DNA of 64,000 nucleotides from a virus. Below the pieces are notes generated by a model that did not search any database, was not told where the DNA came from, and saw only the letters and a list, made by a program, of their open reading frames with translations. Positions within the stretch are counted from its first letter, which is position 1; each line of letters starts with the position of its first letter. The stretch lies in the IMG/VR virus record IMGVR_UViG_3300008954_000007; one strand, given 5' to 3'. Below are positions 2 through 48,850 of this stretch, one piece after another. Made by a program: the position numbers and the translations under genes.

Positions 2-2599
2 ATTGGTGCTTTATTAGATAGTGAGTCTGAATATGAAGCAATAAAAGATGGCTTCAACACTGATGACAATTTAAATGAAATAGGGAAGCTTCTTGGCGTA
101 GATTATGATGGCAACACACTTTCCTCAGATTATGATTATATAAAATTTGGATTTGCCACTGTTGATAATCTTCTAACTATTGGTGGCATGTTAACTTCTG
201 CTAACAATTATGTTAACATAAAAAATGGTTTTGCTGAAAAGGAAGTTAATAATGTTACTGGAGAAACTAGACTTCAAACTATTGGTGGTTTACTAAGCAG
301 TAATGATGAACATGAAACCATAAAAAATGGATATGTAAATGCTGGATTTCTCACTAATGTTGGTGCTTTATTAGATCATGAGGATGAACATGAGTTAATA
401 AAATCAGGATATGCTACAGATGCTAATCTTGAAATTGTTGGTGGTTTAATAAACAGTAATGATGAACACTTAAAAATAAAAACAGCATATGCTACAGATG
501 CTAATCTTGAAATTATTGCTGGATATTTAACTAATGATGTAAGCACAATAAAAGGGCATTTTGTTAATCATGATGGTGGGTCAAATTTAGTTACTATAGG
601 TGGTCAATTAACTGATGATATAGATGCAATAAAAGGACATTTTGTTAATCATGATGGTGGGTCAAATTTAGTTACTATAGGTGGTAAATTAACTGATGAT
701 ATAGATGCAATAAAAGGACATTTTGCTACAGATGCTAATCTTGCAACTATTGGTGGTTTAATAAATACTGAGCCAGAACACTTAAAAATAAAAACAGCAT
801 ATGCCACAGATGCTAATCTTATAATTATTGGTGGCTTAATTACTGAACATGCAGCAATAAAATCTGCATATGCTACAGATGATAATCTTGAAACTATTGG
901 TGGTTTAATTACTGAACATGCAAAAGTAAAACTTGGATATGATACTGATGATAATTTAGGAGCTATTGGTGCTTTATTAATTACAGATAATGATTATGAA
1001 AAGATAGCACTAGGGTTTTCAACATTAGGTGGTTCTGATGCTGGTACTAGATTACAGACTGTAGGGGCTAATATAAACACCAATCATGATGAGATAGCAG
1101 CAGGTCTTACTTCAGAACAATTAGCTATTGTTGGTGCAAATATAAATGATACTGATACAGTAACATTAGCTGGTGGTGCTACTGCTACTCAACTTGAGTT
1201 TGTAGCTCAAAATATAGATTTAACTTCTACTGGATTATCAGGTATTACTGGCTTTTATGACAACATAGCGTTAGAGTTACACCAGTGGGATTATAATCAT
1301 GGTGTTAATACTCCATCAGGAAGTAAGTTTTATTTCTATAACAACTTAGCTGAATCTTTAAGTAATAGATCTCAATATGTGAATCCTAGTGATGATAGTG
1401 CAATACCATTTTATTCAAAACTAGCTCTTGGTTTACATAATACAGATGATTTTTACAGTAACATTTCATCAAGTATAGATATTGGAAATTTATCAATAAG
1501 CTATATAGATCTAGCTACAGCACTTTTAGCTGATGATACTTTTTGCCCTAGTTTAAGTTCAGTGCTTGATTTTTATGATGATTTAGCTAAAGGTTTTGAT
1601 GACACTAAATCCACTACAGGTTTCTATAATGAATTAGCTTCTGGATTTCATGATTTAGATAGTACCATTGGTGGAAGTGTTCCTGGAGCTATAGATTTCT
1701 ATGAGAATTTAGCTAATGGTGTAGCTTCTACTACAGCATTTCATGGATATATTGCTCTTGAACTAGCTGATACAGATAATTTTCATCCACTTTTAGCTGG
1801 TGGATTCTTTAATGCTTATTCTGTCAATGACGATGGTAAAATGGCAGGTGAAGTTCTTGTTGATGAATTGATAGACAATAGTGCTTTTATAGGTGTTTTA
1901 GCATCTAACATAGCAACATCTACAGATTTTTTAGATGCTTTAGTTGAGTGGGAAGACTCTCCACATACTTTCTGGTCAAAACTAGCAGCAGAAATAGATT
2001 TAGCAACTTTATCCAGTCATCTTACGCCTATTAATACATTATCACAAGAGAATATGTATGGTCAAAAAACTATTTCATTAAAATTCCCTAATGATGTACA
2101 TAGTGATCCAGACAATGATCTTGTAATTGATCATACTCATGATTTTTCTGAAAACATAAGTGTATCTGGTTATGCTGATTCTACACAAGTAGATTCTTCA
2201 GGAACTGTTGCAGGAACAACAGATTATTGGCCTAGTGGGGGATACAGTAATCCTTCAGATATTAGATGGAAAGAAAACATTTCTAATTTAACAGAAAGTT
2301 CGCTGGATAAACTTTCTAAATTAGAAGTATTCAATTATGTTTGGAAGAAAGATAGACCATTTGCAGTTGTAGCACCAGAGAAAATTAAGGTAGGTATTTC
2401 AGCCCAATCATTAGAAGAACAATATCCTGAATTAATATATGAAGTTAATGGGGTCAAGAACATTGATACTTTGGGCTTAACCACTACAGTCATTAAAGCT
2501 ACTCAAGAACTTAAAGAAGAAAATCAACAATTAAAGAAAGAGAATCAAGAACTAAAAGACAAGGTTGAGAGGTTGTATAAGCACTTAGGACTTAATTGA
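2..2599 (+). CDS. Tail fibre/spike-like protein with ~23-27 aa tandem repeats and a C-terminal intramolecular chaperone (peptidase S74); 5' end lies outside the window
   Basis: Frame is open from base 2. Repeats IKxxYATDANLxxIGGL. C-terminal SDIRWKENI...GISAQSLEEQYPELI followed by a coiled coil. Confidence 0.75.
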   Translation: MGALLDSESEYEAIKDGFNTDDNLNEIGKLLGVDYDGNTLSSDYDYIKFGFATVDNLLTIGGMLTSANNYVNIKNGFAEKEVNNVTGETRLQTIGGLLSSNDEHETIKNGYVNAGFLTNVGALLDHEDEHELIKSGYATDANLEIVGGLINSNDEHLKIKTAYATDANLEIIAGYLTNDVSTIKGHFVNHDGGSNLVTIGGQLTDDIDAIKGHFVNHDGGSNLVTIGGKLTDDIDAIKGHFATDANLATIGGLINTEPEHLKIKTAYATDANLIIIGGLITEHAAIKSAYATDDNLETIGGLITEHAKVKLGYDTDDNLGAIGALLITDNDYEKIALGFSTLGGSDAGTRLQTVGANINTNHDEIAAGLTSEQLAIVGANINDTDTVTLAGGATATQLEFVAQNIDLTSTGLSGITGFYDNIALELHQWDYNHGVNTPSGSKFYFYNNLAESLSNRSQYVNPSDDSAIPFYSKLALGLHNTDDFYSNISSSIDIGNLSISYIDLATALLADDTFCPSLSSVLDFYDDLAKGFDDTKSTTGFYNELASGFHDLDSTIGGSVPGAIDFYENLANGVASTTAFHGYIALELADTDNFHPLLAGGFFNAYSVNDDGKMAGEVLVDELIDNSAFIGVLASNIATSTDFLDALVEWEDSPHTFWSKLAAEIDLATLSSHLTPINTLSQENMYGQKTISLKFPNDVHSDPDNDLVIDHTHDFSENISVSGYADSTQVDSSGTVAGTTDYWPSGGYSNPSDIRWKENISNLTESSLDKLSKLEVFNYVWKKDRPFAVVAPEKIKVGISAQSLEEQYPELIYEVNGVKNIDTLGLTTTVIKATQELKEENQQLKKENQELKDKVERLYKHLGLN
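546..725 (+). repeat. Near-exact 81-bp tandem duplication inside the fibre gene
   Basis: caataaaagg(g/a)cattttg starts at 546, 627 and 708. Confidence 0.9.
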
Positions 2600-2632
2600 A
2601 TTCTATATAAAAATGGGGTAAGATATAGTAAT

Positions 2633-2662
2633 TTTACAAATAGGCAATGAATCATGTATAAT
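2633..2662 (+). promoter_or_regulatory. Sigma70-type promoter
   Basis: TTTACA (2633)-N18-TATAAT (2657). Confidence 0.65.
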
Positions 2663-2668
2663 AGTCAA

Positions 2669-2717
2669 GCCCTATTTTGTTTTTTGACTCCTTTTTGAAT
2701 TTCAAAATAGGGCATTT
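2669..2717 (+). ncRNA. Candidate hairpin sRNA or leader with a loop antisense to the AAAAAGGAGUC RBS
   Basis: 11-bp stem gccctattttg/caaaatagggc begins at the expected +1. Loop holds TTGACTCCTTTTT. Followed by ATTTT. Confidence 0.55.
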
Positions 2718-2722
2718 TAATT

Positions 2723-2965
2723 ATGCAGATAACAAGAAATATTAAAATAGATATTCCTGATTTAAAGATGAATCAATCTCATCTTAACTATATGGCACAA
2801 CAACATGCAGTTCAATTTTTAAGCACTAAAGATTATTATAATGTTACTACACTTCAAGCTAGAAGCATTAGGGCTGAAGGTAGATTAAACAGTGCTAAAA
2901 TTCATCTTGAAGGGAATCAAAATTTCATTACTAAAATATCAGATCATGTGTTAGAGGACTTTTAA
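2723..2965 (+). CDS. Hypothetical protein, head-tail region
   Basis: ORF coupled to the next gene by TAATG. Confidence 0.6.
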   Translation: MQITRNIKIDIPDLKMNQSHLNYMAQQHAVQFLSTKDYYNVTTLQARSIRAEGRLNSAKIHLEGNQNFITKISDHVLEDF

Positions 2966-3528
2966 TGGCATTTAGTGTAACCTCAGACATATATAAGACT
3001 ATATTTGAAACACTAGTAAGTGAAAGTGATGGTGGTGAGCTAGATTATGTAACTACTTTTCAATCTAGGTTTTACCCTGTAAGAAGGGAAATGGAATATA
3101 ACGCTTTATATCCCTATGTGTTCTTAAGTTTTTCAGGCACATCAAATGAAGAATTACACTCCATGCCACAAATGCATCAATATACTAGCACTATTAGTGT
3201 GGTGGTGTTAACTTGGAATGAGGGTGATGTAAATGTTCAAACAGATGCAGGAGATCTAAATCAAGATGCAGGTTATGTTGATTTAGAAAGCAAGGGTGTT
3301 TTAGAGGTTATTGAGGATATTAAGAGGGTAATTTATACTACCCATAAAGTTAATAGATTTGGATATAGTGAAGGTGAAAAAAGAATTGCTATGTCTGCAG
3401 ATATAGATTGGAACTTTGGCACAGTAGAAAGTCCTACTGTAACAAGCTTACAACCATTGTTGTTAAGTCCTTACATTGAGGCTAAACAATTAAACATTAA
3501 TATTACCATTAGGGAAGGTAGAATATAA
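2965..3528 (+). CDS. Putative tail terminator/completion protein
   Basis: Position directly before the tail tube. YPYVFL and terminal beta-strand pattern. Confidence 0.5.
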   Translation: MAFSVTSDIYKTIFETLVSESDGGELDYVTTFQSRFYPVRREMEYNALYPYVFLSFSGTSNEELHSMPQMHQYTSTISVVVLTWNEGDVNVQTDAGDLNQDAGYVDLESKGVLEVIEDIKRVIYTTHKVNRFGYSEGEKRIAMSADIDWNFGTVESPTVTSLQPLLLSPYIEAKQLNINITIREGRI

Positions 3529-9094: not shown

Positions 9095-9115
9095 CCAAAA
9101 AAAAGGAGTCATTTT

Positions 9116-9709
9116 ATGGCAAGAAGAGGAAGACCCCCCAAAAACCCTGTAGAGGGGGTTGTTAATGAAGAAGTAGTGCCAGAGGCTACTGAAGAAGAAG
9201 AAGTTACACCAGAAGAAGATTTAACCCCTTCTGAAGAGACTGAAGAAGAAACACCAGTTGAAGATAAACCAGCACCTCTAGCTAGTAGAGATGCACTTAT
9301 TAAGAAAAGATATAGAGAAGGTGTAGTTACTACTAGCATGGATCGTTCTTTTGAAATAAAATCAATAGATCCTAAAACAATGTTGTTAACTAGAGGTACA
9401 GCATTCTTACCAGCATTTAACGATTTTTTGGTAGACCCTAATCCTCAAGCTATTGGAAATCCAGAAATACAAAGTTTTGTTAAAGACATAGTATGTAAGG
9501 CAGTAACGTCTATTAATTTTGTAGATAAGGAATTAGAAAATTGCACTGAAGAAGAAACACCAGTTGAAGTATTAGATATTGATGAACAAGTGGAAATATT
9601 TGGTGCTGTTATGGAACTCTGCTCTACAGAGGAGGAGAGAGAGGAATGGTCGTTTTTTCCTGGCAGGATTGAAGAAACCACAGATGATCAATTGCCTGAT
9701 AGAGATTGA
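9116..9709 (+). CDS. Tail assembly chaperone (gpG-like)
   Basis: Lies between tube and tape measure genes, has a strong RBS and overlaps a second-frame ORF. Confidence 0.65.
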   Translation: MARRGRPPKNPVEGVVNEEVVPEATEEEEVTPEEDLTPSEETEEETPVEDKPAPLASRDALIKKRYREGVVTTSMDRSFEIKSIDPKTMLLTRGTAFLPAFNDFLVDPNPQAIGNPEIQSFVKDIVCKAVTSINFVDKELENCTEEETPVEVLDIDEQVEIFGAVMELCSTEEEREEWSFFPGRIEETTDDQLPDRD

Positions 9710-9872
9710 TGTAATAGCTAGAAGGTATAATCTTAATCCAGTTGATCTATTATTTACTGATTGTGAAAATGAGTTTCTCAGATTGGCCTATATTAGGAAA
9801 ATTGCAGAAATTGGAATAGAACAAGAAAACAAAGCTTATGAACAAGCACAAAGAAATGCCCCATCTTCCTAG
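9653..9872 (+). CDS. Frameshift extension of the tail chaperone (gpGT-like, +1/-2 frame)
   Basis: Overlapping ORF 9579-9872. Slippery TTT TTT C at 9653-9659. Confidence 0.55.
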
Positions 9873-9885
9873 TGGGGCATTTTTT
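9854..9885 (+). terminator. Intrinsic terminator or attenuator before the tape measure gene
   Basis: aaatgcccca/tggggcattt followed by a T run. Confidence 0.7.
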
Positions 9886-9898
9886 GTAGGAGAATAAA

Positions 9899-12800
9899 AT
9901 GGCTGGAGCATCTATAGACATTGGCGTAGTAATGCATGGTTTTGGATTCGCTAATGAATCCTTGGGAATATTGCGCCAAAGTTTTGAAAGAGTTGCTGCA
10001 TCTACAGATAATTTAGAAGCTTCTGCTAAAAGATTTTCTGCTACACAAGGTAATATATCTAGATTATCCAGTAATTTAAGTAGTACATTACAAAATTCGA
10101 CTAGTACTATTCAGGATTTTAACGATAAGATAAATAAATCTGATCATTTTTTTGATAACTTAACTGAAGCTGTAGCTAGAGGAGAGCAGGAACAGGCTGA
10201 TTATGAGAGAACCTTAAGGGAAGTAAATAAATCTTTACTTGACTTAGGGGTGACATTTTCAACCATTGCTGGTACTCATTTAAGGGCATTAACTCAAGCA
10301 TTACTTCAATCTTCCATACAAATGGAACAGTTTCAATTAATGCTTAGAGCTACTGGTGGCAGTGCTGATATAGCTGCATCTCAGATGCAGAGGTTAATTA
10401 AAATGGCAGATGCTCCTGGGTTGGAATTCCAGGGGTTAGTTCAAGGGGTTGCTTCATTACAGGCTACAGGTGTTAGTGCAGAACTAGCTGAAAAATCTGT
10501 ATCTGAAATTGGTAATGCTTTAGCAGCAATAGGTGCTCCAGCATCAGAATTATCAGGAGTAGTAAGAGCCTTTAGTCAAATACAAGCTAAAGGTAGGGTA
10601 TATGCTGAAGAAGTTCAACAAATTGCTGAACGTATGCCTCAAATTAGAACTATATTACAGGATACTTTTGGTACAGGTAGAACAGAAGAAATCCAAAGAA
10701 TGGGTTTATCAGCCAATGAATTTTTAGAGTTATTGGTTGATGGTATGAGTAATTTGAGTCGTGTAGGAGAAACTACACAAAACACAATAAAGAATTTTAA
10801 TAATCAATTGTTCTTGCTAGGTTCAGAATTAGGAGAGGTAATTTTACCAGTATTTAGTGATTTAGTGAAGGGGTTAACTAATACTGTTAAGTGGTTTAGA
10901 GAATTACCCAAGGGAATTAAATCTACTATAGCATGGGTTACCTCTATTAGTGGAATTGTTCTTACATTTTCAGCTATTTTAGGAACTGTTGTAACGACAA
11001 TTGGATTTTTAATTCAGGGATTAAAACAATATTCAATTGCAAGTGCTACTGCTGCTGCAGCAGCAAATGTTCAAGCAGCAGCAGTAGGGGTTTTAAATTC
11101 ACAATTAGCTCTTCAAAATGCTTTATCAAGGGGGTCAAAAACGCCTATAATTGATTCACGTTTTGGTGATGTTTCTAAGGCTAATCAAGAACTGCAAAAG
11201 ATGCAAGGTAATTTGAATAAGGTTACAGCATCTACTACAGCAGTTAGTGTAGCAAGTGGATTTTGGTCTAAAATCATACCTATTTTAACTAAAGCTGCTA
11301 AGATATTTGGACTTTTTGCAGTAGTAGCAACTGTTGCATATACAGCTATATCTAAGATGCTAAAAATAACTAGAGATTCTTATCATTCTCTTAATGACTT
11401 GAGTAGGGGAATAGATTCTGTTGGGAATAAAACTTTTGATGTTTTAAACGCTCAATATAAAAAAGATGGGTTTTTAGATGCCATTAATAATAGGAATGAA
11501 GCCTTAAGAGAAGAATTAAAACTTTTAGACGAAACTAAAAATAAATCTTTTGGATCTATGAGGTTCAAAGGTTTAACTCAGGAATCTGAAGAAACTACAG
11601 AGTTATTTGAAGAAAAGTTAAGAAAAAGAGGAATAAGGTCAGAAATAGACTTGTCTACAGGACAAAGAAGATATCAGCAAAAAATCACTCCTACTTGGCA
11701 ATATTTAGGATCTAGGATTGCTTCTCCTATGGCAAGTGAGAATCCAATTATTGGTTTAAAGTGGTGGACTAATCTTTTTACTAAAAAGTTATTACAGCCT
11801 AAAGTTGATAAGCAACCAGATGGTTATTTAAAAGAGCAAGGACAGAATATTCTTAAAAACCAATATGACCAGGCAGATCAAGAATATGTGGATGCATTAA
11901 GAAATAAAGATCCAAATTTTAAAGCAATAGTTATAGAAGTTCCAGCACCTATTCTAACTTATGCAGAAGATACTGTAGGTGGGGGTAGAACTCATAAGTT
12001 TAAATTAGATACTATAAAAAAGTTTAGAGAAACCATGTCTGAAGGAATGGATATGGTAAATAGATTTGTTAAAGATGAGTTTGGAAAATCTAAATCATTT
12101 TTAAGTACAGATTTAAGTGGGGTAGATTTCAATGTTGATGTAGGTCTTTTAACTGTTGATCAAGCTAAATTGTTGGCAGAGTCTGTTCAAAAAAGCGTAA
12201 AACAAAGACAAGAAGTTTCTAAAAAATTAGGGGAAATAAAAGTTGATAGGCAAGGTGGGTTGGTTGACAACAGATCAATAGCTTTTTTAAGTACTTTAAG
12301 GGCTAATTTAGAAGAACGTGTTGTAGATGAAGAGGGTAATTTAGGTATTGTTTTTGTAGAAAGAGATAAAATAATAAAAGCTGTTGAAACTATAAAACAG
12401 CAAGCCAATAGACAGCAGGGAATTATAGCAGAGCTTTTTAGTAGTAGAAATGAATTTGGGGGTCTTGAAAAAGAGATTGAACACTCTATAAAAAACTCTG
12501 ACTTCCAAAAGGCATTTAAAGAACTCTTTAAGATAGAAAAAGCTACAGAAGATGATAATTCTTTATTAGGGTTTGTTTTTACATTTATTGAGAATATTGA
12601 TGGTAAGCAAGTGGTGCTTAGGAAATCTCCAGAAGAATTTTTACAATTATTAAATACAAAAATAGAACAGTTAGAGAGGTCTTCAAAACCTGAAGACCAA
12701 AGAAATAAACGTGGATTTATACAAGTTAGAAATAAAATTAATTTTTATATAGAAAAATTTCAACAAAGTTATTCTCAAAATGTTGAAGCCACCACTGCTT

Positions 12801-15800
12801 CACTTCTTCAAACTTTATTTATATTAGACTCATTAGGTTTAGATTGGGCAGAAAAAGCTGAAATGTTAGCTGCTGGAGCAGAAAAAAAGACTTCTCCAGA
12901 TTATATCACTAAAGCTGGACTTAGATTAAAAGATTTTATAGATGCTGTTGAACTACAGGTTGATCAATTAAACAATTCTTTTAATGTTACAGGTTTAAAA
13001 ATAGGTACTACAGAAGTACCTACTGTAGCAAGTTTACTTGAAAGTGGAGCTTCTTTTGATCAGATTGATTTAGCTAGAGAATTAGCGCAACAAGAGCAAG
13101 CTATTCAAACTAAGGAGTTAGAAGAGAAGGGTAAGATTGCGAAAGCTTTAGCTGAAATATTAAATGGTGCTAGACAAGATCCACTTTTAAGTCCTGTTGT
13201 TAGATATTTATCAGAAAGATTGTTCCCAAAAGATGTTCCTCAACTTAATTTAATGAATCAAGAGAATTTAAAAGCAGTTAGAGATGTATTAAAAGCATGG
13301 ACAGGTGGTCAATTTGTTACTAGTGATACAACTCCAGATAATATAAATACATATCAATCTAATCTTACTAAGTTGTTTGGAGATGATGGATTTGAATATA
13401 CAACAGATCAGTTTATAGATGATTTTTTTAAAAAACCTGAAGAAAAAGGTAAAGGTAGAGACATACCATTAGCTGGAACACTTATAAAAAGATTTGAAGC
13501 TGCCATAAATTTATTCCCTTATACACAGTTATTAAGATTAGATAATCAAAAGAAAAATATTTTTAAGGAAGGATTAAAAAAATCAGCGATTGAACTAGAA
13601 GAAGCTCAAGTAAGTTTTGATGAACAAAGAGCTAATGTGATGTTAATGGGTCATGCTGAAATTAGAAGAAATTTTGAAATAGATAAAGCTTTATCTGAAG
13701 AGATGAAGGATTATAGGCAACAACAGTTTTTAATATCTAAAGGTGCTGGAACAACTGTTCAGGATATAGATCCAAATAAGCTATCTAACACAGAAAGAAG
13801 AGAGTATGATTTAATAGAGAAGAAAGCAAGAATTGAGCAAAAACAGATTGCTGAGAAAAAAAGAAGATTTGAGATAGATGTTAAGAATGGCCTAGAGTTG
13901 GCAAGGATTGGTAGAGAAGAAGAAATATCTCAAGAGAAGAATAGACTCTATTATGAAGATGAAAGAAATAATTTAGAGATAATAGAGCATCAGAGAAATA
14001 AAATAATAGAAACCATTAAGTTAGAGATAGAAGAAAAAAGAGCATCATTACAATTATCCATTGCTACTATTCAAGCACAGTTGAATTCTTTGGATTTAAG
14101 CGTAGAGGATAGATTAGAAAAAGAAAGACAAATTGAAAATTTACAAAAACTATTTGTGCTCACAGGGCAAGAACTTAGGATTAGACTAAGTGGAGAAAGA
14201 ATTTCTTATCAACTTAAGTTAAGGGAGTTTGAACTAGAGGAGAAAAGATTAAAGCAAGCCATTAAGTTTAGAAATGAAACTGAAAAAATAAACACTATAT
14301 ATGAGGGAATGGATTCAGGAGAATTTGTTCCATTTCCAACATTAACAATACCTAAAATTAATTTTGATATTGATTCGTTTGATTCAAAATTATCATTGTG
14401 GTTTCGTCAAGATTTAAATAATCTTGACGAAGGATTAGATGAAGTCATAGAAAAAGAGAGAAAAGTTAAAACAACTATAGAGGGGTTGAACACACAAGAA
14501 ATACAGAAATCAGTATTAAAGATATCCCAAAGTGCACAGGATGGTATAGATAAAGTTCTTAACAGAGATAATTTAGTCAATTTCTTAGTGGATTTAATAC
14601 CAGTTAGTAGCATACATCCTGAAAGATCTATGGAGAAAGTTTGGCAAAATATGGTGGATAATTTCAAAAAAACAACTTTGAAAAGTATTGGTGATGAAAC
14701 TAATACTTTCGCATCTATAAGTGATTTAGTAGATTATACTTTCAGCAATAAAGATAGAAAATATATAGATAATTATGTGGCTGAATTATTATCATTTGTA
14801 GAGCAAGCAGGTGAAAGTTTTAATGTTAAACCTGATGCAACCAAATTTGTATCTAAAGGAATCAAAAGTAAATTAGACAATTTATTTAATCTTAACAACA
14901 TTTACTCACAAAATGTAGATCTGAAAGATTTTATAAGTGGAAAACCAATAAAAAATAGTGTTCCTACTGATGGTTTAAGAAGTGCTTTAATCTATGCCCT
15001 ATCCATTTCATTGGAAGACTTAGATTTACCAAGTGAAAGAGATTTGTCCAAATACGCTGGAGTTACTTCTACTAGTTCTGAAGATTATGTAGAAAGTTAC
15101 AGAAAAAAACTTGAACCAGTTGTAGATCAACTAATCCCATATATTCAACAATCCCTTGGTGGAATAAATATTAATGACATTTTAGCTTCAACATTACAAG
15201 GAATGTCCAGCTTAGAAACAGCGATATCTAATGTTAACCAAAAATTTAAAAAAATAAAAATTGACGATAAACAAAGAGAATTTGATGATTTTCATACTAC
15301 GTTGACAAAAATAACAGATAGTTCAACTGGATTAGAATTTATGAAAAACTATTCTACACCTGTTAAAAAACAACTATCTGATGCTATTGATGATCCTTCA
15401 TATACTGATGTTAAGGTAGAACTTGTAGAAATAAAAAAAGAGCTAGATTCTATACACGATAGAGTTGTAAATATAGCAGATGTTAAACTTAATGAAGATT
15501 GGAAAACTACAATATCAAATTATAATAAAAATTTAGAATCACATTTAAACTCTATATTAAAAGCTCCAAGTAGAGAAACATTTTATTCTGCAGAAGATGG
15601 TGTGGAAAGAAGTTTATTAAATTTAAGAGCAGAATATAACAATACTTTTGCAAATTTACAAATGGACTATGATGATGCTATATCTGCAGGAGATGATTCA
15701 GCTAAAAAACGTGCTATCTATAATTTAGAGCAAGCTAAACAACAGTTTTCTTCTGGAATATCTTCATTAAAATCTCAAACCAATCAAGCTAATTTGCAAT

Positions 15801-17473
15801 TTGAGCAAACTTTTAATGAACAGCAAATTAGAATAAACAATATAAATGAGATGAAAAGTCGTAGTGACTATACATCGTTGTTTGATTTTAAACAAAGAAT
15901 TGACCTAGAAGACAGAGCATTAAAAGATAGTTATAGACTTCAAATTCAACTACTAGAAGAAAAAGCAAAAAAACAAAAAGGAAATGAGACTGAACTATTA
16001 GCAATATCTCAACAAAGAACATTATTAGAACAACAATTACAGGCTGATTTAATTAGGGCATATAGAAATCATTGGAAAGAAACAATAACTATTGCTAAAG
16101 ATGGGTTTGTCTCTTTATGGGATAATGCTAAGTCCTATAAAGAGAGTAGAGAAGATGAACTGGACGATTATAAAGATAAAATAGAAGATATTAATAAAGA
16201 TTTGAATGATTCCTTAAGTGATTTGGCTAGTGATTCTAATAAAACATTTAGGGAAAAAGAAGAAGAAAGACTTAAAATTGCTAAAGATTATAGTAAGAGA
16301 AGAGAAGATATAGAAAAAGAACATAATGACACAATGAAAGATCTGAGGAATGAGTTTTGGAAAGATCTTTTATCGTCTGCTAGAAGAAATATTTCAGAAC
16401 GTTTAGCAAATAAAACTATAGATTGGACTATAGAGAAATTTACTTTCAATGATAAAGAAAGTATTGATAAATTATTTGAAGGTATAGAAAGACAAAAACT
16501 TCCAGGTGAATTACAACAACAATATGACGAATTAGTAGAAAGTAGAAAGTCAATTGCTGATACATTTGAAAATTCAGGTGGAATTTTTGAATCACTTAAG
16601 AGAAATTTTTTCTCTAGCGAAGATTCTACAGTTGAAAATGGAAATGAAACAACAGCAAATGAAAAAACAGTTGAAAAACAAACTAAGAACTTTGTAGAGG
16701 CTGTAAGTAATCTTAAGACATCTAGTGTTAACACTATGCATGTTGCCACTATGTCTGTGAAAAATATAGAAGGATTGGTTGGTAATAACCAAAGAACTCA
16801 AAAGATAGAAGACGAATCAAAATTAATAAATAGTCTACCACCTACTGCAGAACCAATATTGCCAACAACTGATGTTCCAACTATAAATAATGGTTCTAAT
16901 AATGATTCCTCTAGTGAAGAAACAAAGACAGAAAGCACTTCAGGTCGTTTAGCTGATGCTTTTAAGCATATGAACCCTGCAGAGGCTAATCCATATGCTT
17001 TAATGGCAATGCATCTTGGAACCACTTATGCTAGTGATAGGATGTTAGAGAAACAAGAAACTACTAAAGAAAGAGAAAAATATGCCAAATTACAGTTTGC
17101 AGCAGGTGCAACACTTGCCACTATAGGATCAGCATTAGCATTTTTTGATCCCACTAAAAAAATTGCACCATATTTAGTAGGTCAGGGTCTTAGTATGTCA
17201 ACTAACAGCATGAAAGAAACAGGATGGTTTGATACCAGGGATAATGATATTATCTTACAGAGTATGGCAAGAAGGGCAGGACATACTCAACGTTCAGCAG
17301 AAGATATGTCTAGGTTAGTTGTAGATGGATTTAAAGAAGGTTATGAACAGCAACAAGATGGTTCTGGTAATGTTGAAGTTAATGTTTCAGGTCACTTTGA
17401 ATTAGGTCAAAGGGAACTTCAATATATAGCAGATGAAACTCACATAATGAGAAAAAGAGGGGTCATAGGATAA
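9899..17473 (+). CDS. Tape measure protein
   Basis: 2524 aa, helical and coiled-coil, tape-measure motif AFSQIQAKGRVYAEEVQQIAERMP, hydrophobic segments. Confidence 0.92.
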   Translation: MAGASIDIGVVMHGFGFANESLGILRQSFERVAASTDNLEASAKRFSATQGNISRLSSNLSSTLQNSTSTIQDFNDKINKSDHFFDNLTEAVARGEQEQADYERTLREVNKSLLDLGVTFSTIAGTHLRALTQALLQSSIQMEQFQLMLRATGGSADIAASQMQRLIKMADAPGLEFQGLVQGVASLQATGVSAELAEKSVSEIGNALAAIGAPASELSGVVRAFSQIQAKGRVYAEEVQQIAERMPQIRTILQDTFGTGRTEEIQRMGLSANEFLELLVDGMSNLSRVGETTQNTIKNFNNQLFLLGSELGEVILPVFSDLVKGLTNTVKWFRELPKGIKSTIAWVTSISGIVLTFSAILGTVVTTIGFLIQGLKQYSIASATAAAAANVQAAAVGVLNSQLALQNALSRGSKTPIIDSRFGDVSKANQELQKMQGNLNKVTASTTAVSVASGFWSKIIPILTKAAKIFGLFAVVATVAYTAISKMLKITRDSYHSLNDLSRGIDSVGNKTFDVLNAQYKKDGFLDAINNRNEALREELKLLDETKNKSFGSMRFKGLTQESEETTELFEEKLRKRGIRSEIDLSTGQRRYQQKITPTWQYLGSRIASPMASENPIIGLKWWTNLFTKKLLQPKVDKQPDGYLKEQGQNILKNQYDQADQEYVDALRNKDPNFKAIVIEVPAPILTYAEDTVGGGRTHKFKLDTIKKFRETMSEGMDMVNRFVKDEFGKSKSFLSTDLSGVDFNVDVGLLTVDQAKLLAESVQKSVKQRQEVSKKLGEIKVDRQGGLVDNRSIAFLSTLRANLEERVVDEEGNLGIVFVERDKIIKAVETIKQQANRQQGIIAELFSSRNEFGGLEKEIEHSIKNSDFQKAFKELFKIEKATEDDNSLLGFVFTFIENIDGKQVVLRKSPEEFLQLLNTKIEQLERSSKPEDQRNKRGFIQVRNKINFYIEKFQQSYSQNVEATTASLLQTLFILDSLGLDWAEKAEMLAAGAEKKTSPDYITKAGLRLKDFIDAVELQVDQLNNSFNVTGLKIGTTEVPTVASLLESGASFDQIDLARELAQQEQAIQTKELEEKGKIAKALAEILNGARQDPLLSPVVRYLSERLFPKDVPQLNLMNQENLKAVRDVLKAWTGGQFVTSDTTPDNINTYQSNLTKLFGDDGFEYTTDQFIDDFFKKPEEKGKGRDIPLAGTLIKRFEAAINLFPYTQLLRLDNQKKNIFKEGLKKSAIELEEAQVSFDEQRANVMLMGHAEIRRNFEIDKALSEEMKDYRQQQFLISKGAGTTVQDIDPNKLSNTERREYDLIEKKARIEQKQIAEKKRRFEIDVKNGLELARIGREEEISQEKNRLYYEDERNNLEIIEHQRNKIIETIKLEIEEKRASLQLSIATIQAQLNSLDLSVEDRLEKERQIENLQKLFVLTGQELRIRLSGERISYQLKLREFELEEKRLKQAIKFRNETEKINTIYEGMDSGEFVPFPTLTIPKINFDIDSFDSKLSLWFRQDLNNLDEGLDEVIEKERKVKTTIEGLNTQEIQKSVLKISQSAQDGIDKVLNRDNLVNFLVDLIPVSSIHPERSMEKVWQNMVDNFKKTTLKSIGDETNTFASISDLVDYTFSNKDRKYIDNYVAELLSFVEQAGESFNVKPDATKFVSKGIKSKLDNLFNLNNIYSQNVDLKDFISGKPIKNSVPTDGLRSALIYALSISLEDLDLPSERDLSKYAGVTSTSSEDYVESYRKKLEPVVDQLIPYIQQSLGGININDILASTLQGMSSLETAISNVNQKFKKIKIDDKQREFDDFHTTLTKITDSSTGLEFMKNYSTPVKKQLSDAIDDPSYTDVKVELVEIKKELDSIHDRVVNIADVKLNEDWKTTISNYNKNLESHLNSILKAPSRETFYSAEDGVERSLLNLRAEYNNTFANLQMDYDDAISAGDDSAKKRAIYNLEQAKQQFSSGISSLKSQTNQANLQFEQTFNEQQIRINNINEMKSRSDYTSLFDFKQRIDLEDRALKDSYRLQIQLLEEKAKKQKGNETELLAISQQRTLLEQQLQADLIRAYRNHWKETITIAKDGFVSLWDNAKSYKESREDELDDYKDKIEDINKDLNDSLSDLASDSNKTFREKEEERLKIAKDYSKRREDIEKEHNDTMKDLRNEFWKDLLSSARRNISERLANKTIDWTIEKFTFNDKESIDKLFEGIERQKLPGELQQQYDELVESRKSIADTFENSGGIFESLKRNFFSSEDSTVENGNETTANEKTVEKQTKNFVEAVSNLKTSSVNTMHVATMSVKNIEGLVGNNQRTQKIEDESKLINSLPPTAEPILPTTDVPTINNGSNNDSSSEETKTESTSGRLADAFKHMNPAEANPYALMAMHLGTTYASDRMLEKQETTKEREKYAKLQFAAGATLATIGSALAFFDPTKKIAPYLVGQGLSMSTNSMKETGWFDTRDNDIILQSMARRAGHTQRSAEDMSRLVVDGFKEGYEQQQDGSGNVEVNVSGHFELGQRELQYIADETHIMRKRGVIG

Positions 17474-17939: not shown

Positions 17940-17971
17940 AAGCCCTTAAGATTTATTTTAAGGGCTTTTTT
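17940..17971 (+). terminator. Intrinsic terminator
   Basis: aagcccttaa/ttaagggctt followed by Ts. Confidence 0.75.
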
Positions 17972-38199: not shown

Positions 38200-38210
38200 C
38201 CCCATTTAAT

Positions 38211-38239
38211 TTGCAATAACTACATAAGTATGATATAAT
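38211..38239 (+). promoter_or_regulatory. Sigma70-type promoter
   Basis: TTGCAA-N17-TATAAT with extended TG. Confidence 0.8.
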
Positions 38240-38266
38240 TATGATAGGTTGAAAAAAGGAGTCAAC

Positions 38267-39019
38267 ATGGCAAGGAAGAGAAGAAAGAACAGAAAGAGAA
38301 TGGTCAAGTCTAGTACTTCAAAAACCATTAGTGTTGATAGGTATACTGATCTTGAAGATTGTGAGTTATATATTGTAGATAGATTAACTTCTATAGACTG
38401 TGATCTCACCAAAGGGGTTATTAAGTTTTTACAACCAGAAGATTCAGAAGAGTTTGATTGCTCAATTAATATGAGTCAGGTTGATAGTGCTAGAAAACTT
38501 TTGCAAATGATATTTTTCTTAGCAAACAATGAAGCATTTACCAAGAAGCACATTTTTGATTTGATTCATGTGGCATCTCTAGATTCTTACAGCAAGGAAA
38601 GAGATAAGGTCTTAAATGATCTCTATCGTGGTTTTAGGCATGTTGTTCTCTCTAAAGACAATATAATGAAAAACCATTATTTTTGGTGGATTGAGAAACA
38701 TGCTGATGATTTGAAAGAGAGTTTTTTTGATGGCAAAACTCCTGAAGAAATAGAGGAGTTAAGTGATGAAGGTCTTGATCCATCTGATGAAAGTAAATGT
38801 GGTGAAAGATATTTTTCATTTGTGGGGAGAAGTTGGGTTAGTTATTTAAATCGTCTTCCAAGTCACCTAATGAAAAATGATTCTGATATGGCTATGGTTT
38901 TTCAAGCTCAAGGAGATCCTCAAGAGGCAGAATCTGTTGAGGCTAATATTTATTTTGATAACATCTATTTTGATTATTCAGATGAAGACTTTAAGTCTTT
39001 AAAAAAGGAGTCAGCATGA
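38267..39019 (+). CDS. Hypothetical protein (start revised)
   Basis: AAAAAAGGAGTC RBS at 38252. Confidence 0.7.
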   Translation: MARKRRKNRKRMVKSSTSKTISVDRYTDLEDCELYIVDRLTSIDCDLTKGVIKFLQPEDSEEFDCSINMSQVDSARKLLQMIFFLANNEAFTKKHIFDLIHVASLDSYSKERDKVLNDLYRGFRHVVLSKDNIMKNHYFWWIEKHADDLKESFFDGKTPEEIEELSDEGLDPSDESKCGERYFSFVGRSWVSYLNRLPSHLMKNDSDMAMVFQAQGDPQEAESVEANIYFDNIYFDYSDEDFKSLKKESA

Positions 39020-39708
39020 CAGATAAATGGGATGTTAAAAGCTATCAAAAGAATAGGGAACTTGGCGTAATGCCAAACACCATCATGGATAGTAGGCTAA
39101 CTAATGTGTTGGATGATTATCTTGAAGACAGAGAAAAACAAGTTGCCATAACAACTAACATGGAACTGTCTGTATTGGATAGGGAAGATTACTTCTTGGG
39201 TAGGAAGAACTATAGGTTGTCACATAAATTTCCCTATAAAAGGGTTGATATATCTTATGATACTTATACTCCTTGGGAAGATGATAAGTCTATTTATGAG
39301 CTTAAAAACTCTACAGAATATCGTGACGAAGACACAGAAACATTCTTCATTAAAAGCACAATGACCAATAAGATTCTTGTACAAAGATTAATGATTCTTG
39401 TAATTGAAGATGTGTTTTTTCTTGATGAAGAAGTTGAGGATTGCTTCAAGTATTTTACAGAAGCTAAGGTGACCTATAATTTTAAGTATTCCAATAGAAA
39501 TAATTTTGAACTTAAGTATGATAGGGAATATGATAAGTTAGCTGAAGGGTATTTTGATTTTGATTCCTATTGGAGCAATAGAGATGAGATAGATTGTGAC
39601 CATAATAGTTTTGAAATTGAGACTTTAACTGATAGTTCTTTTGAGTCAAAAGTTCAGCATTATGATTGGAATTGGAAATTAAATAAAGATGTTAGGAGTT
39701 TGTTTTAG
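39016..39708 (+). CDS. Acidic hypothetical protein
   Basis: Same RBS at 39001. Confidence 0.7.
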   Translation: MTDKWDVKSYQKNRELGVMPNTIMDSRLTNVLDDYLEDREKQVAITTNMELSVLDREDYFLGRKNYRLSHKFPYKRVDISYDTYTPWEDDKSIYELKNSTEYRDEDTETFFIKSTMTNKILVQRLMILVIEDVFFLDEEVEDCFKYFTEAKVTYNFKYSNRNNFELKYDREYDKLAEGYFDFDSYWSNRDEIDCDHNSFEIETLTDSSFESKVQHYDWNWKLNKDVRSLF

Positions 39709-39746
39709 GGAGTTAACTTAAACAAATGAAAAAAAAAGGAGTCAAA

Positions 39747-40151
39747 GTGTCTCTCATAGGGATAAAACATCAACCACCAACCCCAAACCCTAATGGTGTA
39801 ATCAATGAAGAATTCATCCCTTATTTAAAAAGGGGGTTTAATCTAAATGAGGATGAAATTAAAGACTATAAAAGGTTGAGGAAAAGATCTTTAAAGATTT
39901 ACAACATCATTAAGAAAACAGGGGCGTGTAACGCACCAGATTCATATGGTAATTATGAAAGTTTTTTCTTTAGAGATGATGGAACTGAAATAGATTTCTT
40001 CTTGGGGAAAGAAGAAATATTACAGCAGATCATAGATTTTGAAGAAAAATTGGGTCTTTATAAGAAGATTTATGGAACAACTGATCCACCTTGTCATAGT
40101 GACTTGGAGTCTGTTCATTATGGTGAGAAGGATATAACGTTTTTTTGTTAA
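39747..40151 (+). CDS. Hypothetical protein (GTG start revised)
   Basis: Same RBS at 39732. Confidence 0.65.
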   Translation: MSLIGIKHQPPTPNPNGVINEEFIPYLKRGFNLNEDEIKDYKRLRKRSLKIYNIIKKTGACNAPDSYGNYESFFFRDDGTEIDFFLGKEEILQQIIDFEEKLGLYKKIYGTTDPPCHSDLESVHYGEKDITFFC

Positions 40152-40164
40152 AAAAGGAGTCTAA

Positions 40165-40422
40165 ATGGGATACTGGAGTGAAGTTCAGATAGAGTTAGAT
40201 GAAAAGGAATCAGAAAAAGAAGAAGCTATTAGTATGGGTTATGATGAAGACTATCTTTTTTCTTTGTTTGGGGATAATTGGGTTGAGTATGTAGATTTTT
40301 TTTATGAGTCAGATGAATATGATTATTCAATTTTTGAAGATAAGGCTACAGAATTAGAGAAAAAAGGCATAGCCCATTGGCAATTGGAAGAAAAAAAGGA
40401 GTCCATATGTCTGAGCAATTGA
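40165..40422 (+). CDS. Very acidic small protein
   Basis: Same RBS at 40150, rich in D/E and aromatics. Confidence 0.7.
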   Translation: MGYWSEVQIELDEKESEKEEAISMGYDEDYLFSLFGDNWVEYVDFFYESDEYDYSIFEDKATELEKKGIAHWQLEEKKESICLSN

Positions 40423-40889
40423 ACATTGAAGGTCTAATAGTATCAGAGGAAACCACAGTTTCTGAAGAGATTGAGGGAGAGGTTACTGAAGAAGAACCAA
40501 CGTTTTTGGATATGACCATCAGTCCAGAAACTGAATCTCTAATGGAAGAGATGAGATCTGGACATTCAGTTTATGATCACTCTACCAAGAAGGTTTATTT
40601 TAAGAAGCTACCATCTATTCCACCTATTGGAATTAGTGAGTTTGATTCAAAAAAGAAGTTAGTTGATTGGATCTTTTTTCTAACAGGTAAGAAGCAATGT
40701 ACAGTAAGAACTATTGATGATCTAGTCACTATTGCCAACTCTATCCACACTCTAAAGGTAGAGCACTGTCCTACTAAATTGCCAGTTGATTTGATGGCAA
40801 GAACAGAGGATATAAACACAACCTATAGCCATGATAGCTGGAGAGATGAAGAAGAAGATGATACTCCATGCAATCAAGGTTCTAACTAA
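40407..40889 (+). CDS. Hypothetical protein (start revised)
   Basis: Same RBS at 40392. Confidence 0.7.
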   Translation: MSEQLNIEGLIVSEETTVSEEIEGEVTEEEPTFLDMTISPETESLMEEMRSGHSVYDHSTKKVYFKKLPSIPPIGISEFDSKKKLVDWIFFLTGKKQCTVRTIDDLVTIANSIHTLKVEHCPTKLPVDLMARTEDINTTYSHDSWRDEEEDDTPCNQGSN

Positions 40890-41669
40890 ATGACTAAACT
40901 TAAACTTAGTGATTTGTTGTCTAAGGCTCCAATAAAAAATCCAACAGTTGGATTAGAGGGAGCATTATTGAATGAGTTATTTGATGCATTTGAGGATGGT
41001 AGAGTTTTTTCCTCTAAAAATGCGTTAAGTGTAGTGAAGAAGTATATGGATAAAAGATTGGATTATCTTGATCCATTTTATGATTTTAAAATGATGGGCA
41101 AAGTTAGTGAAAGATCTCAACAAACAAAATTGGGAAAACTAATGGCAAAATTGTCCAATAAGGATGTTTTTTCTACTAATGGTATTAAATATACATTGAT
41201 TAGTAGAAAGATTAATAATGGGAATAAATATAGGTTTATTCCACACAGAGTAAAAAAGGAGTCTTTAATGAAAATTAAAGCAGTTACAGACCAAGAAGCT
41301 TTAGAGCAGTATGAAGAAGCAGCCACTCAACAACCAGAAGAAGGGTTTACACCTGAAGTTATATCTGCATCACCTGAAAAGGTTATGTTTAGTAGCTTTC
41401 AGTATGACTTTGCTACTGGAACTATTCTTGTAGAAGAAGGAGAAGATATAGCCCTTCCTATACACATAGCTCTTAACAGGGAGATTTCACATACAGAGGA
41501 TATTGAAGGTAGAAAAGATGGCTCTGATGTGAGATGCGTAGATGTTTCATATATAACAGGTGCTACCACCAAAGATCAAGCTATCCAGACCATTATTTTG
41601 AAATTCACAAAAACTGGAAAACCTGGACAGTATTTTGATAGTGATGGTTGGCTACATTCAAAAAGTTAA
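40890..41669 (+). CDS. Hypothetical protein with an internal in-frame start at 41268
   Basis: Internal AAAAAAGGAGTC at 41252. Confidence 0.65.
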   Translation: MTKLKLSDLLSKAPIKNPTVGLEGALLNELFDAFEDGRVFSSKNALSVVKKYMDKRLDYLDPFYDFKMMGKVSERSQQTKLGKLMAKLSNKDVFSTNGIKYTLISRKINNGNKYRFIPHRVKKESLMKIKAVTDQEALEQYEEAATQQPEEGFTPEVISASPEKVMFSSFQYDFATGTILVEEGEDIALPIHIALNREISHTEDIEGRKDGSDVRCVDVSYITGATTKDQAIQTIILKFTKTGKPGQYFDSDGWLHSKS

Positions 41670-41693
41670 ATTCTGAAACGTCAGTATAACTGG

Positions 41694-41732
41694 AAGAGTC
41701 CTAAGAGCGTTAAGGAACTTAGGACTCTTTTT
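41694..41732 (+). terminator. Intrinsic terminator
   Basis: aagagtcctaag/cttaggactctt followed by Ts. Confidence 0.8.
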
Positions 41733-41807
41733 CATTTAAAACCAATTGAAACTTCTTATAAACCTAGAAGAAAGGAAAGAACTTTAGAGTTAGTAAAATT
41801 TAGATAT

Positions 41808-42104
41808 TTGGGGTATAAGATAATGATGGAACACATACTTAAAATAGATGATGATAAAATAATAATTAGTCCAGGAAAATTTGAGGGAGAAAAATATTAT
41901 GTGCCATACTATTATGATTTATATCTAGATGGAGCTTATGATGAAATAACAGATGATGAAGAAATACTTTTTAAAATAGATGAAGATGATAAGGAAATGT
42001 TCCCTGAACTTTTACATGTAGACTCATTATATTTATTTCAAGATGATCAAGGTTTTATCTATTGTAGTGTCTCAGATGAGGAAGGGTTGACAATTGATAT
42101 ATAG
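41808..42104 (+). CDS. Very acidic small protein (PGKFEGE motif)
   Basis: D/E-rich ORF. Confidence 0.65.
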   Translation: MGYKIMMEHILKIDDDKIIISPGKFEGEKYYVPYYYDLYLDGAYDEITDDEEILFKIDEDDKEMFPELLHVDSLYLFQDDQGFIYCSVSDEEGLTIDI

Positions 42105-42116
42105 TGATGCTATCAT
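42087..42116 (+). promoter_or_regulatory. Sigma70-type promoter
   Basis: TTGACA-N18-TATCAT with extended TG. Confidence 0.7.
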
Positions 42117-42150
42117 AATACTATTGTTCAAAAAAAAGGAGTCGATGGGG

Positions 42151-42366
42151 ATGGAGATTATGAGTGAATCTGGTAGAGTGCAGAAGAGTTTTTGGTTAAC
42201 CCAAGTTAGTAATCAGTATCTTAAGAGTGCCTCTAAGAAACTAGGCATTTCTCAGACAGGTTTTATCAACATGATGTTGAGTAGACTTAAGGAAAAAGAA
42301 GATAACAATCAGCCAATTATCACTATTAGAGAAGAAGCAGATCTTCCAGATTTGGTGAGCAAATAA
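42151..42366 (+). CDS. Ribbon-helix-helix-like regulator (start revised)
   Basis: KSFWLT...YLKSASKKLGISQTGFINMML. RBS at 42132. Confidence 0.6.
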   Translation: MEIMSESGRVQKSFWLTQVSNQYLKSASKKLGISQTGFINMMLSRLKEKEDNNQPIITIREEADLPDLVSK

Positions 42367-42367
42367 G

Positions 42368-43261
42368 GTGTTAAACAATAAGTTAAGTGGGTTCTTTCAC
42401 CCTGACCAAAAGCTTGATGGATTCTTAGATAAAGAAGAAGTTAAGTTTGGTGGGTTTACTATTGAAGAGAGTAAAAAGTTTGTGGTTCATGAAAATTATA
42501 CATCAGAGCTTGCACCAGAATACACTGAGTGCTTAGATCCATTCATGAAGTATGAACCATGTTTGACATATAATCTAAAAAAAGACTCTGATGGCATTAA
42601 GGCAATTAATCAGTACACAGAAGAGAGATACCAACATGCCATCAGATTTGAGAAGTATGTATGGAAAGATCCTGAGAATCTGAAGTACAGGTGGATGATT
42701 AGCAGAATAGGAGAGATGGCTGTTGAAGAGGTAACTGGCAAGAGTGTATTAAATCTTAATCCAATGGTGGCTAGGTTCTCAGATCAAGAAGACTACAAAG
42801 AAATTGAGTGTGGTATTAAGTCTTTCTCATACAATGCCAGGTACTCTCACTTGCCATTGATTAATAACAAGACTAAAGAGCCAACTATACTTGTCTCTAT
42901 CCTGCATAAAGAAGATTCATACTTGTGTTATGTGGTTGGTTATGCTACTCTGGAAGTATTGCTGGAACCAGAAAACTTAACCACTTCCAATATTAATAAC
43001 AAAGAGATTCTTAAAAATAAGAAATCTTTCCATGCTTTTGATAAGTTGATTAGTCTTAACACACCTGAAAACTTAACCCTTCAGGATAAGATCAATAAAC
43101 AAGAAGAATTCAACAACATCAAAGCAGATTACTTCAAGATTATTAAGATACGTCAGGCTATCATTGAACAATATCAGAGGAGAATTGAAGATGAACAACC
43201 AAGACTTAATCACCATCCACAATCAAATTCAAACACAGAAGGACAAACTGCAACAGCTTAA
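42368..43261 (+). CDS. Hypothetical protein, possible PD-(D/E)xK-like nuclease
   Basis: GEMAV...D...IGIKS-type pattern (ECGIKS). Confidence 0.4.
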   Translation: MLNNKLSGFFHPDQKLDGFLDKEEVKFGGFTIEESKKFVVHENYTSELAPEYTECLDPFMKYEPCLTYNLKKDSDGIKAINQYTEERYQHAIRFEKYVWKDPENLKYRWMISRIGEMAVEEVTGKSVLNLNPMVARFSDQEDYKEIECGIKSFSYNARYSHLPLINNKTKEPTILVSILHKEDSYLCYVVGYATLEVLLEPENLTTSNINNKEILKNKKSFHAFDKLISLNTPENLTLQDKINKQEEFNNIKADYFKIIKIRQAIIEQYQRRIEDEQPRLNHHPQSNSNTEGQTATA

Positions 43262-44115: not shown

Positions 44116-44334
44116 TTGGCTAGAAAACAGACTTTTAAGAACAATGAGGTTAAGGTGTGGAAACAGTTTCCACTCAGAATTGATAATAGGCAACACCAAT
44201 GGCTGAAGTCAATATCTGATGAAAAACAAATCTCAATTAACAAGATGATTAACGATGTTCTCAGTGAAGAGAGAGATCGCCAATTGTTTAACATCGAAGA
44301 ATCCATTCCACTTTCAGGAGATGCTAATGAGTGA
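44116..44334 (+). CDS. Arc/RHH-type DNA-binding protein
   Basis: KQFPLRID...LK..S.EKQISINKMIN. Confidence 0.65.
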   Translation: MARKQTFKNNEVKVWKQFPLRIDNRQHQWLKSISDEKQISINKMINDVLSEERDRQLFNIEESIPLSGDANE

Positions 44335-46939: not shown

Positions 46940-47082
46940 TGTTTTGTCCACTCCAATACTTTGATTAAAAGCTCTCTTGCCTTTTCAGGGTTGATTAACC
47001 AATACATATCAATAAAGAAACCAAACAGGAAAGCACTGACAGTTGCAGATGCAACTATCAGTGTGTTAATGATTAACCTCAT
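46936..47082 (-). CDS. 48-aa membrane peptide, not in the ORF track
   Basis: MRLIINTLIVASATVSAFLFGFFIDMYW..., ATGA overlaps at both ends. Confidence 0.7.
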   Translation of the reverse strand: MRLIINTLIVASATVSAFLFGFFIDMYWLINPEKARELLIKVLEWTKQ

Positions 47083-47954: not shown

Positions 47955-48011
47955 GTTTTTCTCCTGTTTGTTATAGTGGTATTATACCATACTTATAGGG
48001 TATGTGCAACC

Positions 48012-48770: not shown

Positions 48771-48850
48771 TGTTAAATCTCCTGATTGGTTAAGGGTTAA
48801 TGAACTTGAAACTATTGGAATTATACCATAATACTATAACAATGACAAGG

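Follow-up and report, generated by a model that had tools for sequence, protein, structure and literature searches.

A conserved hairpin with a loop complementary to a private class of ribosome-binding sites in the putative leader of a marine phage tail operon

The loops of c4 RNA (phages P1 and P7) and sar RNA (phage P22) pair with the ribosome-binding site (RBS) region of phage mRNAs and block their translation (PMC12197685). This is the nearest mechanism to the hairpin described here, which likewise appears to be a phage RNA with a loop complementary to phage RBSs, over 11–13 nt at nine RBSs in the genome studied and over 12 nt in its relatives. The c4 RNA is encoded upstream of its target in the same operon. 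The hairpins of Staphylococcus aureus RNAIII, RsaE/RoxS and Listeria LhrC carry an unpaired CUCC-type loop, which pairs with the Shine-Dalgarno (SD) sequences of several mRNAs. In the S. aureus icaR mRNA an anti-SD motif in the 3' UTR reportedly pairs with the SD of the same mRNA and limits its translation. In the Escherichia coli ompA leader and the Bacillus 5' stabilisers a stem-loop forms the extreme 5' end of the mRNA; for these no specific loop sequence is needed. For large lytic phages, the usual account of how gene expression is timed invokes promoters, sigma factors and a small number of proteins such as RegA and RegB. The T4 RegB protein recognises the extended SD motif GG*AGRAYARAA of one class of phage genes and inactivates these mRNAs (PMC3014915).

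The hairpin lies in a stretch of viral DNA of 64,000 nucleotides, referred to as the window, which has a G+C content of 33%. The window belongs to a phage genome of about 144 kb that has been assembled many times from marine metagenomes; an identical copy of a 187-amino-acid protein neighbouring the hairpin is carried by 17 metagenome contigs, eight of them 50–200 kb long. No relative of the window was found in a phage collection by megablast, and a protein search of IMG/VR found no relatives of the phage. A scan of IMG/VR for the loop and promoter pattern gave only 20 matches, which is chance level, and these were without the hairpin. Neither tRNA genes nor Rfam families at the gathering score were found in the 64 kb. 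Homology to c4 (Rfam C4, RF01695) was likewise absent at the gathering score, positions 2560–2800 gave only noise with E > 2 to unrelated families.

The window begins with the end of a giant tail fibre gene (2–2599). The first cistron 3' of the hairpin is a conserved 80-amino-acid gene (2723–2965, + strand; alignment A2), which belongs to no Pfam or PHROG family. It is followed by tail-tube paralogs from 3539 onward and by the tape measure gene (9899–17473). Other recognisable genes in the window encode a histidine kinase of the hybrid type, which includes a receiver domain (HisKA, HATPase_c and Response_reg; 58885–60330, − strand), an ArdC-like anti-restriction/metallopeptidase protein (47079–47954, − strand), a dCMP deaminase (57609–58025, + strand) and a GH108 endolysin with a PG_binding_3 domain (44255–44923, + strand). 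The PG_binding_3 domain of the endolysin suggests a Gram-negative host. The best bacterial homologs of the histidine kinase are just 33–40% identical to it and are scattered over many phyla.

Between the stop codon of the fibre gene (2599) and the ATG at 2723 there is a predicted promoter directly followed by the hairpin. The promoter is of the sigma-70 type (TTTACA-18-TATAAT, 2633–2662, + strand; 11 of 12 matches), with the −35 hexamer at 2633–2638, a spacer of 18 nt and the −10 hexamer at 2657–2662, and it has the best promoter score in positions 2000–3500. The hairpin comprises 45 nt (2669–2713, + strand) and is supported by folding and by covariation. Its 11-bp stem is formed by GCCCTATTTTG (2669–2679) and CAAAATAGGGC (2703–2713). 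The 23-nt loop (2680–2702) contains TTGACTCCTTTTT at 2684–2696 (+ strand), this is the anti-RBS core, UUGACUCCUUUUU, which is the complement of an RBS motif found elsewhere in the window. The fold has an energy of −16.7 kcal/mol (z −3.65, with 0 of 200 shuffles equally good) and its predicted apical 7-nt loop is CUCCUUU. An A/U-rich spacer, AUUUUAAUU (2714–2722, + strand), separates the stem from the ATG and contains no SD. A first-pass annotation of the DNA had described the promoter, the 11-bp stem, the 23-nt loop and the motif, and all are present. It had also placed the expected +1 at the first base of the stem; the stem starts 6 nt past the −10 box, so a predicted transcript start at or beside that base is reasonable.

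A second pairing can be drawn in RNA that reads through from upstream. In positions 2655–2727 the stem could be lengthened by pairing of UGUAUAAU, the −10 box, with AUUAUGCA, a segment that takes in the ATG of gene 2723. Comparable imperfect pairing, of UUAUAAU with AUUUUAA, is present in two relatives (L011 and L022). In transcripts arriving from upstream, such an extended stem might mask this start codon.

Relatives of the locus were found in marine metagenomes through homologs of the 187-amino-acid protein. They gave five further variants of the intergenic region, six in all, in L018-21 (89% identity in the 187-amino-acid protein), L011 (64%), L024 (62%), L022 (52%) and L025 (51%); the neighbouring proteins of the variants are 33–89% identical. 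In all six the TATAAT is exact and ends 6–7 nt before the stem, where a transcript start is predicted, and in all six the stem is followed by an A/U spacer of 9–13 nt without an SD and then by the ATG of a conserved protein of 80–84 amino acids. The stem varies between 10 and 17 bp, the hairpin between 45 and 46 nt and the loop between 17 and 23 nt. The sequence AUUUUA directly 3' of the stem is kept in five of the six. The 10-nt core of the loop, ACUCCUUUUU, is invariant in every variant, down to a protein identity of 33–40%. The distant relatives L012 and L016 (40–44% identity) have a promoter and no hairpin in this module.

The stem shows covariation. In an alignment of the hairpins only (A3), 93.8% of cells are paired, a count that is slightly lowered because the L024 row is off by one column, and four of the 12 pairs have changed on both sides. 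Three of 500 shuffles were as good, and slid controls gave 30–59% pairing. The stems contain G-U pairs on the + strand only, and four of the six variants fold at −17.5 to −24.6 kcal/mol as the + strand and at −7.7 to −12.7 kcal/mol as the − strand. Since the G-U pairs are strand-specific, the structure is that of an RNA read from the + strand. Compensatory stem changes and strand-specific G-U pairs are together the generic mark of a structured RNA under selection, and both are found here. Compared with the 89% relative, the hairpin has one change in 45 nt, whereas the gene next to it has diverged at 21 of 81 third codon positions (26%). The promoter region (2633–2662) has four differences from the same relative, all of them in the spacer, and the hexamers are untouched. 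The hairpin is very probably a real RNA structure under selection.

The motif complementary to the loop, AAAAAGGAGTC, has ten exact matches in the window, compared with 0.12 expected from shuffles (both strands). Nine of these are RBSs 3–7 nt ahead of gene starts and the tenth is the hairpin loop, in antisense. The first-pass annotation had noted that the loop is the exact complement of a motif before nine starts, extending to 13 nt at 38252, 39732 and 63052; this holds, with the 13-nt sites at 38253, 39733 and 63052. In the window AAAAGGAG is followed by TC in every case, which makes these sites a distinct RBS class (class II) and not merely strong SDs. Other genes in the window have (U)AGGAGA-type sites (class I).

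Seven of the nine class II sites belong to successive genes at 38.2–42.1 kb, all on the + strand. They precede gene 38267–39019 (RBS 38252–38263, motif at 38253), gene 39016–39708 (39001–39012, motif at 39002, within the end of the upstream gene), gene 39747–40151, which has a GTG start (39732–39743, motif at 39733), gene 40165–40422 (40150–40161, motif at 40151), gene 40407–40889 (40392–40403, motif at 40393), an ATG at 41268 (41252–41263, motif at 41253) and gene 42145–42366 (42132–42143, motif at 42133), where the site lies just past a TTGACA-18-TATCAT promoter. The ATG at 41268 is either internal to ORF 40890–41669 or the start of a separate gene of 133 amino acids. The RBS of gene 40165 is retained in the relative L028 despite replacement of the gene upstream. 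The other two class II sites are that of gene 9116–9709, AAAAAAGGAGTC (9099–9110, + strand, with AAAAAGGAGTC at 9100), which is conserved across lineages, and that of the 71-amino-acid gene 62831–63046 (63052–63063, − strand, motif at 63052–63062). Two variants of the motif also match the loop. One, AAAAAGAGGGGTC (17452–17464, + strand), precedes a 65-amino-acid gene 3' of the tape measure and pairs with the loop via G-U; the other, AAAAGGGGTC (58024–58033, + strand), precedes gene 58036 (T5orf172 domain) and is a G-U-tolerant match. Searches of Pfam and PHROGs with the class II genes were empty save for one weak repressor-like match, for gene 42145.

A metagenome scan with the protein encoded at 39016–39708 found three short loci only and no diverged lineage. 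The cluster at 38200–42400 is mosaic; in relatives of about 90–95% identity (L026 and L028) flanking genes have been swapped, yet the junctions retain A6-8GGAGTC. The RBS that these genes share may double as a recombination joint. A third type of RBS is found in an early cassette block at 47955–55358 (− strand), which has at least eight perfect TTGACA-17/18-TGnTATAAT promoters. Most of these are followed by ..CTATCAAACAAAGGAwrGAAAAC and an ATG, and this RBS type does not match the hairpin loop.

Pairing energies separate the two main classes. Class II sites form duplexes of −15.5 to −19.2 kcal/mol with the loop and of −8.2 to −10.5 kcal/mol with a canonical anti-SD. Class I sites give about −8 kcal/mol with both. 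When both strands are scanned with a naive duplex score, each of the nine class II sites ranks among the best 27 of about 32,000 windows, and the non-RBS sites 61193, 13101, 37925 and 46372 score like them. Each of the nine sites reads A6+GGAGTC while the loop offers only U5, so part of the conservation of the RBSs is unexplained by pairing.

The 3' tail of 16S rRNA has a conserved CCUCC core. Judged from this core, the first-pass annotation was correct that the usual 16S tail does not explain the UC after GGAG; the missing G has a separate cause. No RBS in the window has a G after GGAG, because GGAGG/CCTCC is nearly purged from the window (2 copies compared with about 46 expected on both strands, the most under-represented 5-mer). 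The purge accounts in part for what comes after GGAG; it does not account for the invariant UC. Other words are purged as well, namely CCG/CGG (1 copy, 116 expected), CGAG/CTCG (0, 25 expected), GGACC (0, 24 expected), GGGAC (0, 20 expected), GCTAGC (0, 17 expected) and GGCC (22, 85 expected). GGAGG is not purged in the distant relatives L012 and L016. The purge looks like avoidance of multiple restriction sites, and it strips the canonical GGAGG SD from the phage.

Co-variation of loop and RBS in related phages, which the first-pass annotation had proposed as a check, was looked for, and the flanks of the two have changed together between lineages. Two of the hairpin contigs could be extended to gene 9116 by contigs found through homologs of that gene, L054 joining L011 (2684-nt overlap, 100% identity) and L051 joining L022 (through its first 55 nt, 100% identity). 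In the window the loop reads UGACUCCUUUUU (GACUCC) and the RBS of gene 9116 reads AAAAAGGAGUCA (GGAGUC), these form 12 contiguous Watson-Crick pairs. In both joined lineages the loop reads AACUCCUUUUUA and the RBS of the gene 9116 ortholog reads UAAAAAGGAGUU, which again form 12 contiguous Watson-Crick pairs. Each joined lineage has one antisense copy of TAAAAAGGAGTT, in the loop, and one sense copy, at the RBS of the ortholog, with none elsewhere. The window has zero copies of TAAAAAGGAGTT and the joined relatives have zero copies of AAAAAGGAGTC. In the hairpin-less relatives, which have no loop, the RBS of the ortholog is AAAAGGAGA, plain AAAGGAGA or AUGGAGA, and neither AAAAAGGAGTC nor TAAAAAGGAGTT was found in 53 kb of their sequence. 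The small gene past the tape measure is orthologous between the lineages and has a loop-matching site in both; at L051:10453 it reads UAAAAGGAGUUAUC. The RBSs of a 68-amino-acid gene in L011 and L022 fit the loop less well, and that of the equivalent 62-amino-acid gene in L024 is plain AAGGAGA. Counted as events, the co-variation is essentially a single compensatory change, G-C to A-U, between two clades, plus the co-absence of loop and motif, L011 and L022 being close kin. As evidence this is numerically modest, but it is specific. A protein that binds RNA cannot recognise a sequence and also the complement of that sequence, so the simple links between loop and RBS are RNA-RNA pairing or a site at the DNA level.

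The gene 9116 family has no family match and no PDB profile match. Its proteins start with an AT-hook (MARRGRPPK) followed by an acidic body and are encoded just before the tape measure. A conserved ORF overlaps the family in the +1 frame, also before the tape measure (9116–9872 in the window, 5444–6191 in L051). From this arrangement, gene 9116 and the overlapping ORF may be a tail-assembly-chaperone pair with a programmed frameshift.

The explanation that fits the locus best, to which we would give about an even chance, is that the 5' leader of the tail operon mRNA carries an anti-RBS loop, which pairs with a private RBS class. A host-type promoter would start the transcript of the tail-tube operon at the base of the conserved 45-nt hairpin. 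The open loop would display ACUCCUUUUU and its flanks, which resemble the anti-SD tail of 16S rRNA, and it would be tailored to a private phage RBS class (A5-8GGAGUC in the window, UAAAAAGGAGUU in the relatives), with which it would pair over 11–13 bp. The targets within its own operon would be gene 9116 before the tape measure and probably also the small gene after it; those on other phage mRNAs would be the cluster at 38–42 kb and gene 62831–63046. Pairing would compete with the ribosome, most likely lowering translation of the targets while the tail operon is transcribed, and repression is the direction of control that we infer. Why a strong SD should be coupled to a repressor calls for a reason, for example timing. 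At the 5' terminus, the hairpin would probably also protect the end of the mRNA. Hairpins at the very 5' end are classical mRNA stabilisers, so for a hairpin at this predicted 5' end a double role is likely.

It is possible, if rather unlikely, that the leader acts purely in cis, stabilising the tail operon mRNA and/or setting the SD-independent translation of the 80-amino-acid gene. The U/C-rich loop would then be kept as the recognition site of S1, Hfq or a protein factor of the phage, with the complementarity to SD-like RBSs a by-product of any CU-rich loop. The position of the stem 6–7 nt past TATAAT and the lack of an SD at the first gene in all six variants fit such a leader, as does the poor termination tail, which keeps the hairpin on the mRNA. 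In general, 5'-terminal stem-loops such as those of the ompA leader and the Bacillus 5' stabilisers are established stabilisers. However, a purely cis-acting leader leaves the ACUCC of the loop unexplained, because an rRNA-like or generic pyrimidine loop would give CCUCC. The recurrence of the same 11–12-mer only at a special RBS class, the joint change of the loop and RBS flanks and the absence of both motifs from the hairpin-less relatives are also left unexplained.

The first-pass annotation had read the hairpin as an sRNA from the structural region that might shut down translation of a gene set or, alternatively, as a hairpin that those mRNAs might open. The link between the loop and an RBS class stood up, through the selection on the hairpin, its covariation, the invariant core and the joint flank change, but the discrete sRNA of about 50 nt did not. 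A stand-alone RNA of this length, terminated or processed just past the stem and acting in trans as a regulon switch, is an unlikely form of the same pairing. In its favour, the hairpin follows the promoter directly and AUUUUA is kept in five of six variants; the RNA could be released if transcription partly terminates within the A/U spacer or if RNase E cuts there, and leader-derived sRNAs are known in bacteria. A terminator scan found none at the hairpin, however, and its tail AUUUUAAUU has a T score of 2.16 and d = −45, compared with +3.9 for the clear terminator at 17940. The clear terminators of the phage have loops of 3–8 nt and T6 tails, whereas the loops of the leader hairpins are 17–23 nt. 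The hairpin does not conform to a Rho-independent terminator, with its G+C-rich stem, short loop and U-run. As in sRNAs of the anti-SD-loop type, it has an unpaired C/U-rich loop complementary to several SDs; it does not form a terminator-ended unit of its own. A conserved gene, without a promoter of its own, begins 9–13 nt past the stem. This position and the poor terminator make the hairpin likelier to be the 5' leader of the tail operon mRNA than a free sRNA. Functional pairing between the loop and the RBSs is the best explanation in two forms, the leader-borne one at about an even chance and the free sRNA as the unlikely one.

Classical terminators are located at 9860–9880 and 17940–17967, directly before the ATG at 9899, which has an SD, and the ATG at 17975, which has none. 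The stem of the 9860 terminator, GCCCCAT/AGTGGGGC, resembles the stems of the leader hairpins of L011 and L022, and its loop is CUUCCU.

A site at the DNA level is quite improbable. Here a phage or host protein would bind or modify the DNA in either orientation, its specificity would differ between lineages (GAGTC as opposed to GAGTT) and the position in the loop would be incidental. A changed protein specificity would also yield a joint change of loop and RBS, promoters (2657, 38234 and 42111) are found just upstream of three of the copies, and short DNA words are under heavy selection in this genome. RNA-RNA pairing is favoured because the sense copies have a fixed distance from the start codon and the antisense copy is placed in an RNA loop. 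All sense copies are 3–7 nt before starts, several of them inside an upstream coding sequence, which points to a function in RNA or at the ribosome, and the antisense copy coincides with the loop of an RNA structure that G-U pairs assign to the + strand. The word GAGTC itself is neither enriched nor avoided (59 copies, 45–66 expected).

Chance, in which the pyrimidine-rich loop of a leader hairpin fits a frequent RBS word by accident, is the least probable reading: SD-like words are common, A/U runs are cheap in an AT-rich genome and the small number of antisense 11-mers expected in 64 kb (about 0.02–0.06 by a base-composition estimate) is judged post hoc, but the relation recurs independently in relatives with a different 12-mer and the 10-nt loop core is invariant at a protein identity of 33–40%.

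Two further candidates were rejected. A CsrA-type decoy on the minus strand, with an SD in its loop, has C-A mismatches in the stems and no start codon past the motif, and the neighbouring genes are all on the + strand. An invertible segment between the inverted 11-mers would invert the tail-tube genes.

If the loop of the tail operon leader does pair with the class II RBSs, the phage would be able to silence or ration a set of genes by means of RNA only, including single cistrons in a long structural operon. This would explain the oddly invariant extended RBSs of some phages. More tentatively, and with considerable doubt, we suggest a private translation channel, in which the extended RBSs of a subset of genes fit the ribosome less well than they fit an rRNA-tail mimic made by the phage, and the late tail-operon leader reprograms the translation of phage mRNAs by RNA alone. 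Such a channel would place the mimic on an abundant late leader and would reach cistrons inside the same operon. A loop complement, RBSs of a private class and their having changed jointly together provide a simple sequence signature with which uncultured phages can be searched.

The c4 RNA acts in one immunity operon of temperate phages, whereas the hairpin would be part of a late structural-operon leader with 9–11 RBSs spread over 60 kb as its candidate targets. The c4 RNA is a processed free RNA; processing is not indicated for the hairpin. RNAIII, RsaE and LhrC are bacterial stand-alone sRNAs with terminators, which pair with generic SDs through short seeds. The hairpin instead has an 11–13-nt complement to a private extended RBS and is predicted to lie in an mRNA leader. 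RegB and RegA are proteins, the candidate recogniser of an RBS class here is an RNA loop. Compared with the 5' stabilisers, the 5'-end position of the hairpin is predicted from promoter spacing in six variants, and the loop is its most conserved part. The icaR mRNA is monocistronic with its motif in the 3' UTR, whereas the hairpin would be carried by the 5' leader of a long operon, with targets on other transcripts also. The novel element, judging from the sequence, is that the leader of a late structural operon matches a private class of RBSs at 9–11 genes, with cistrons of its own operon among them.
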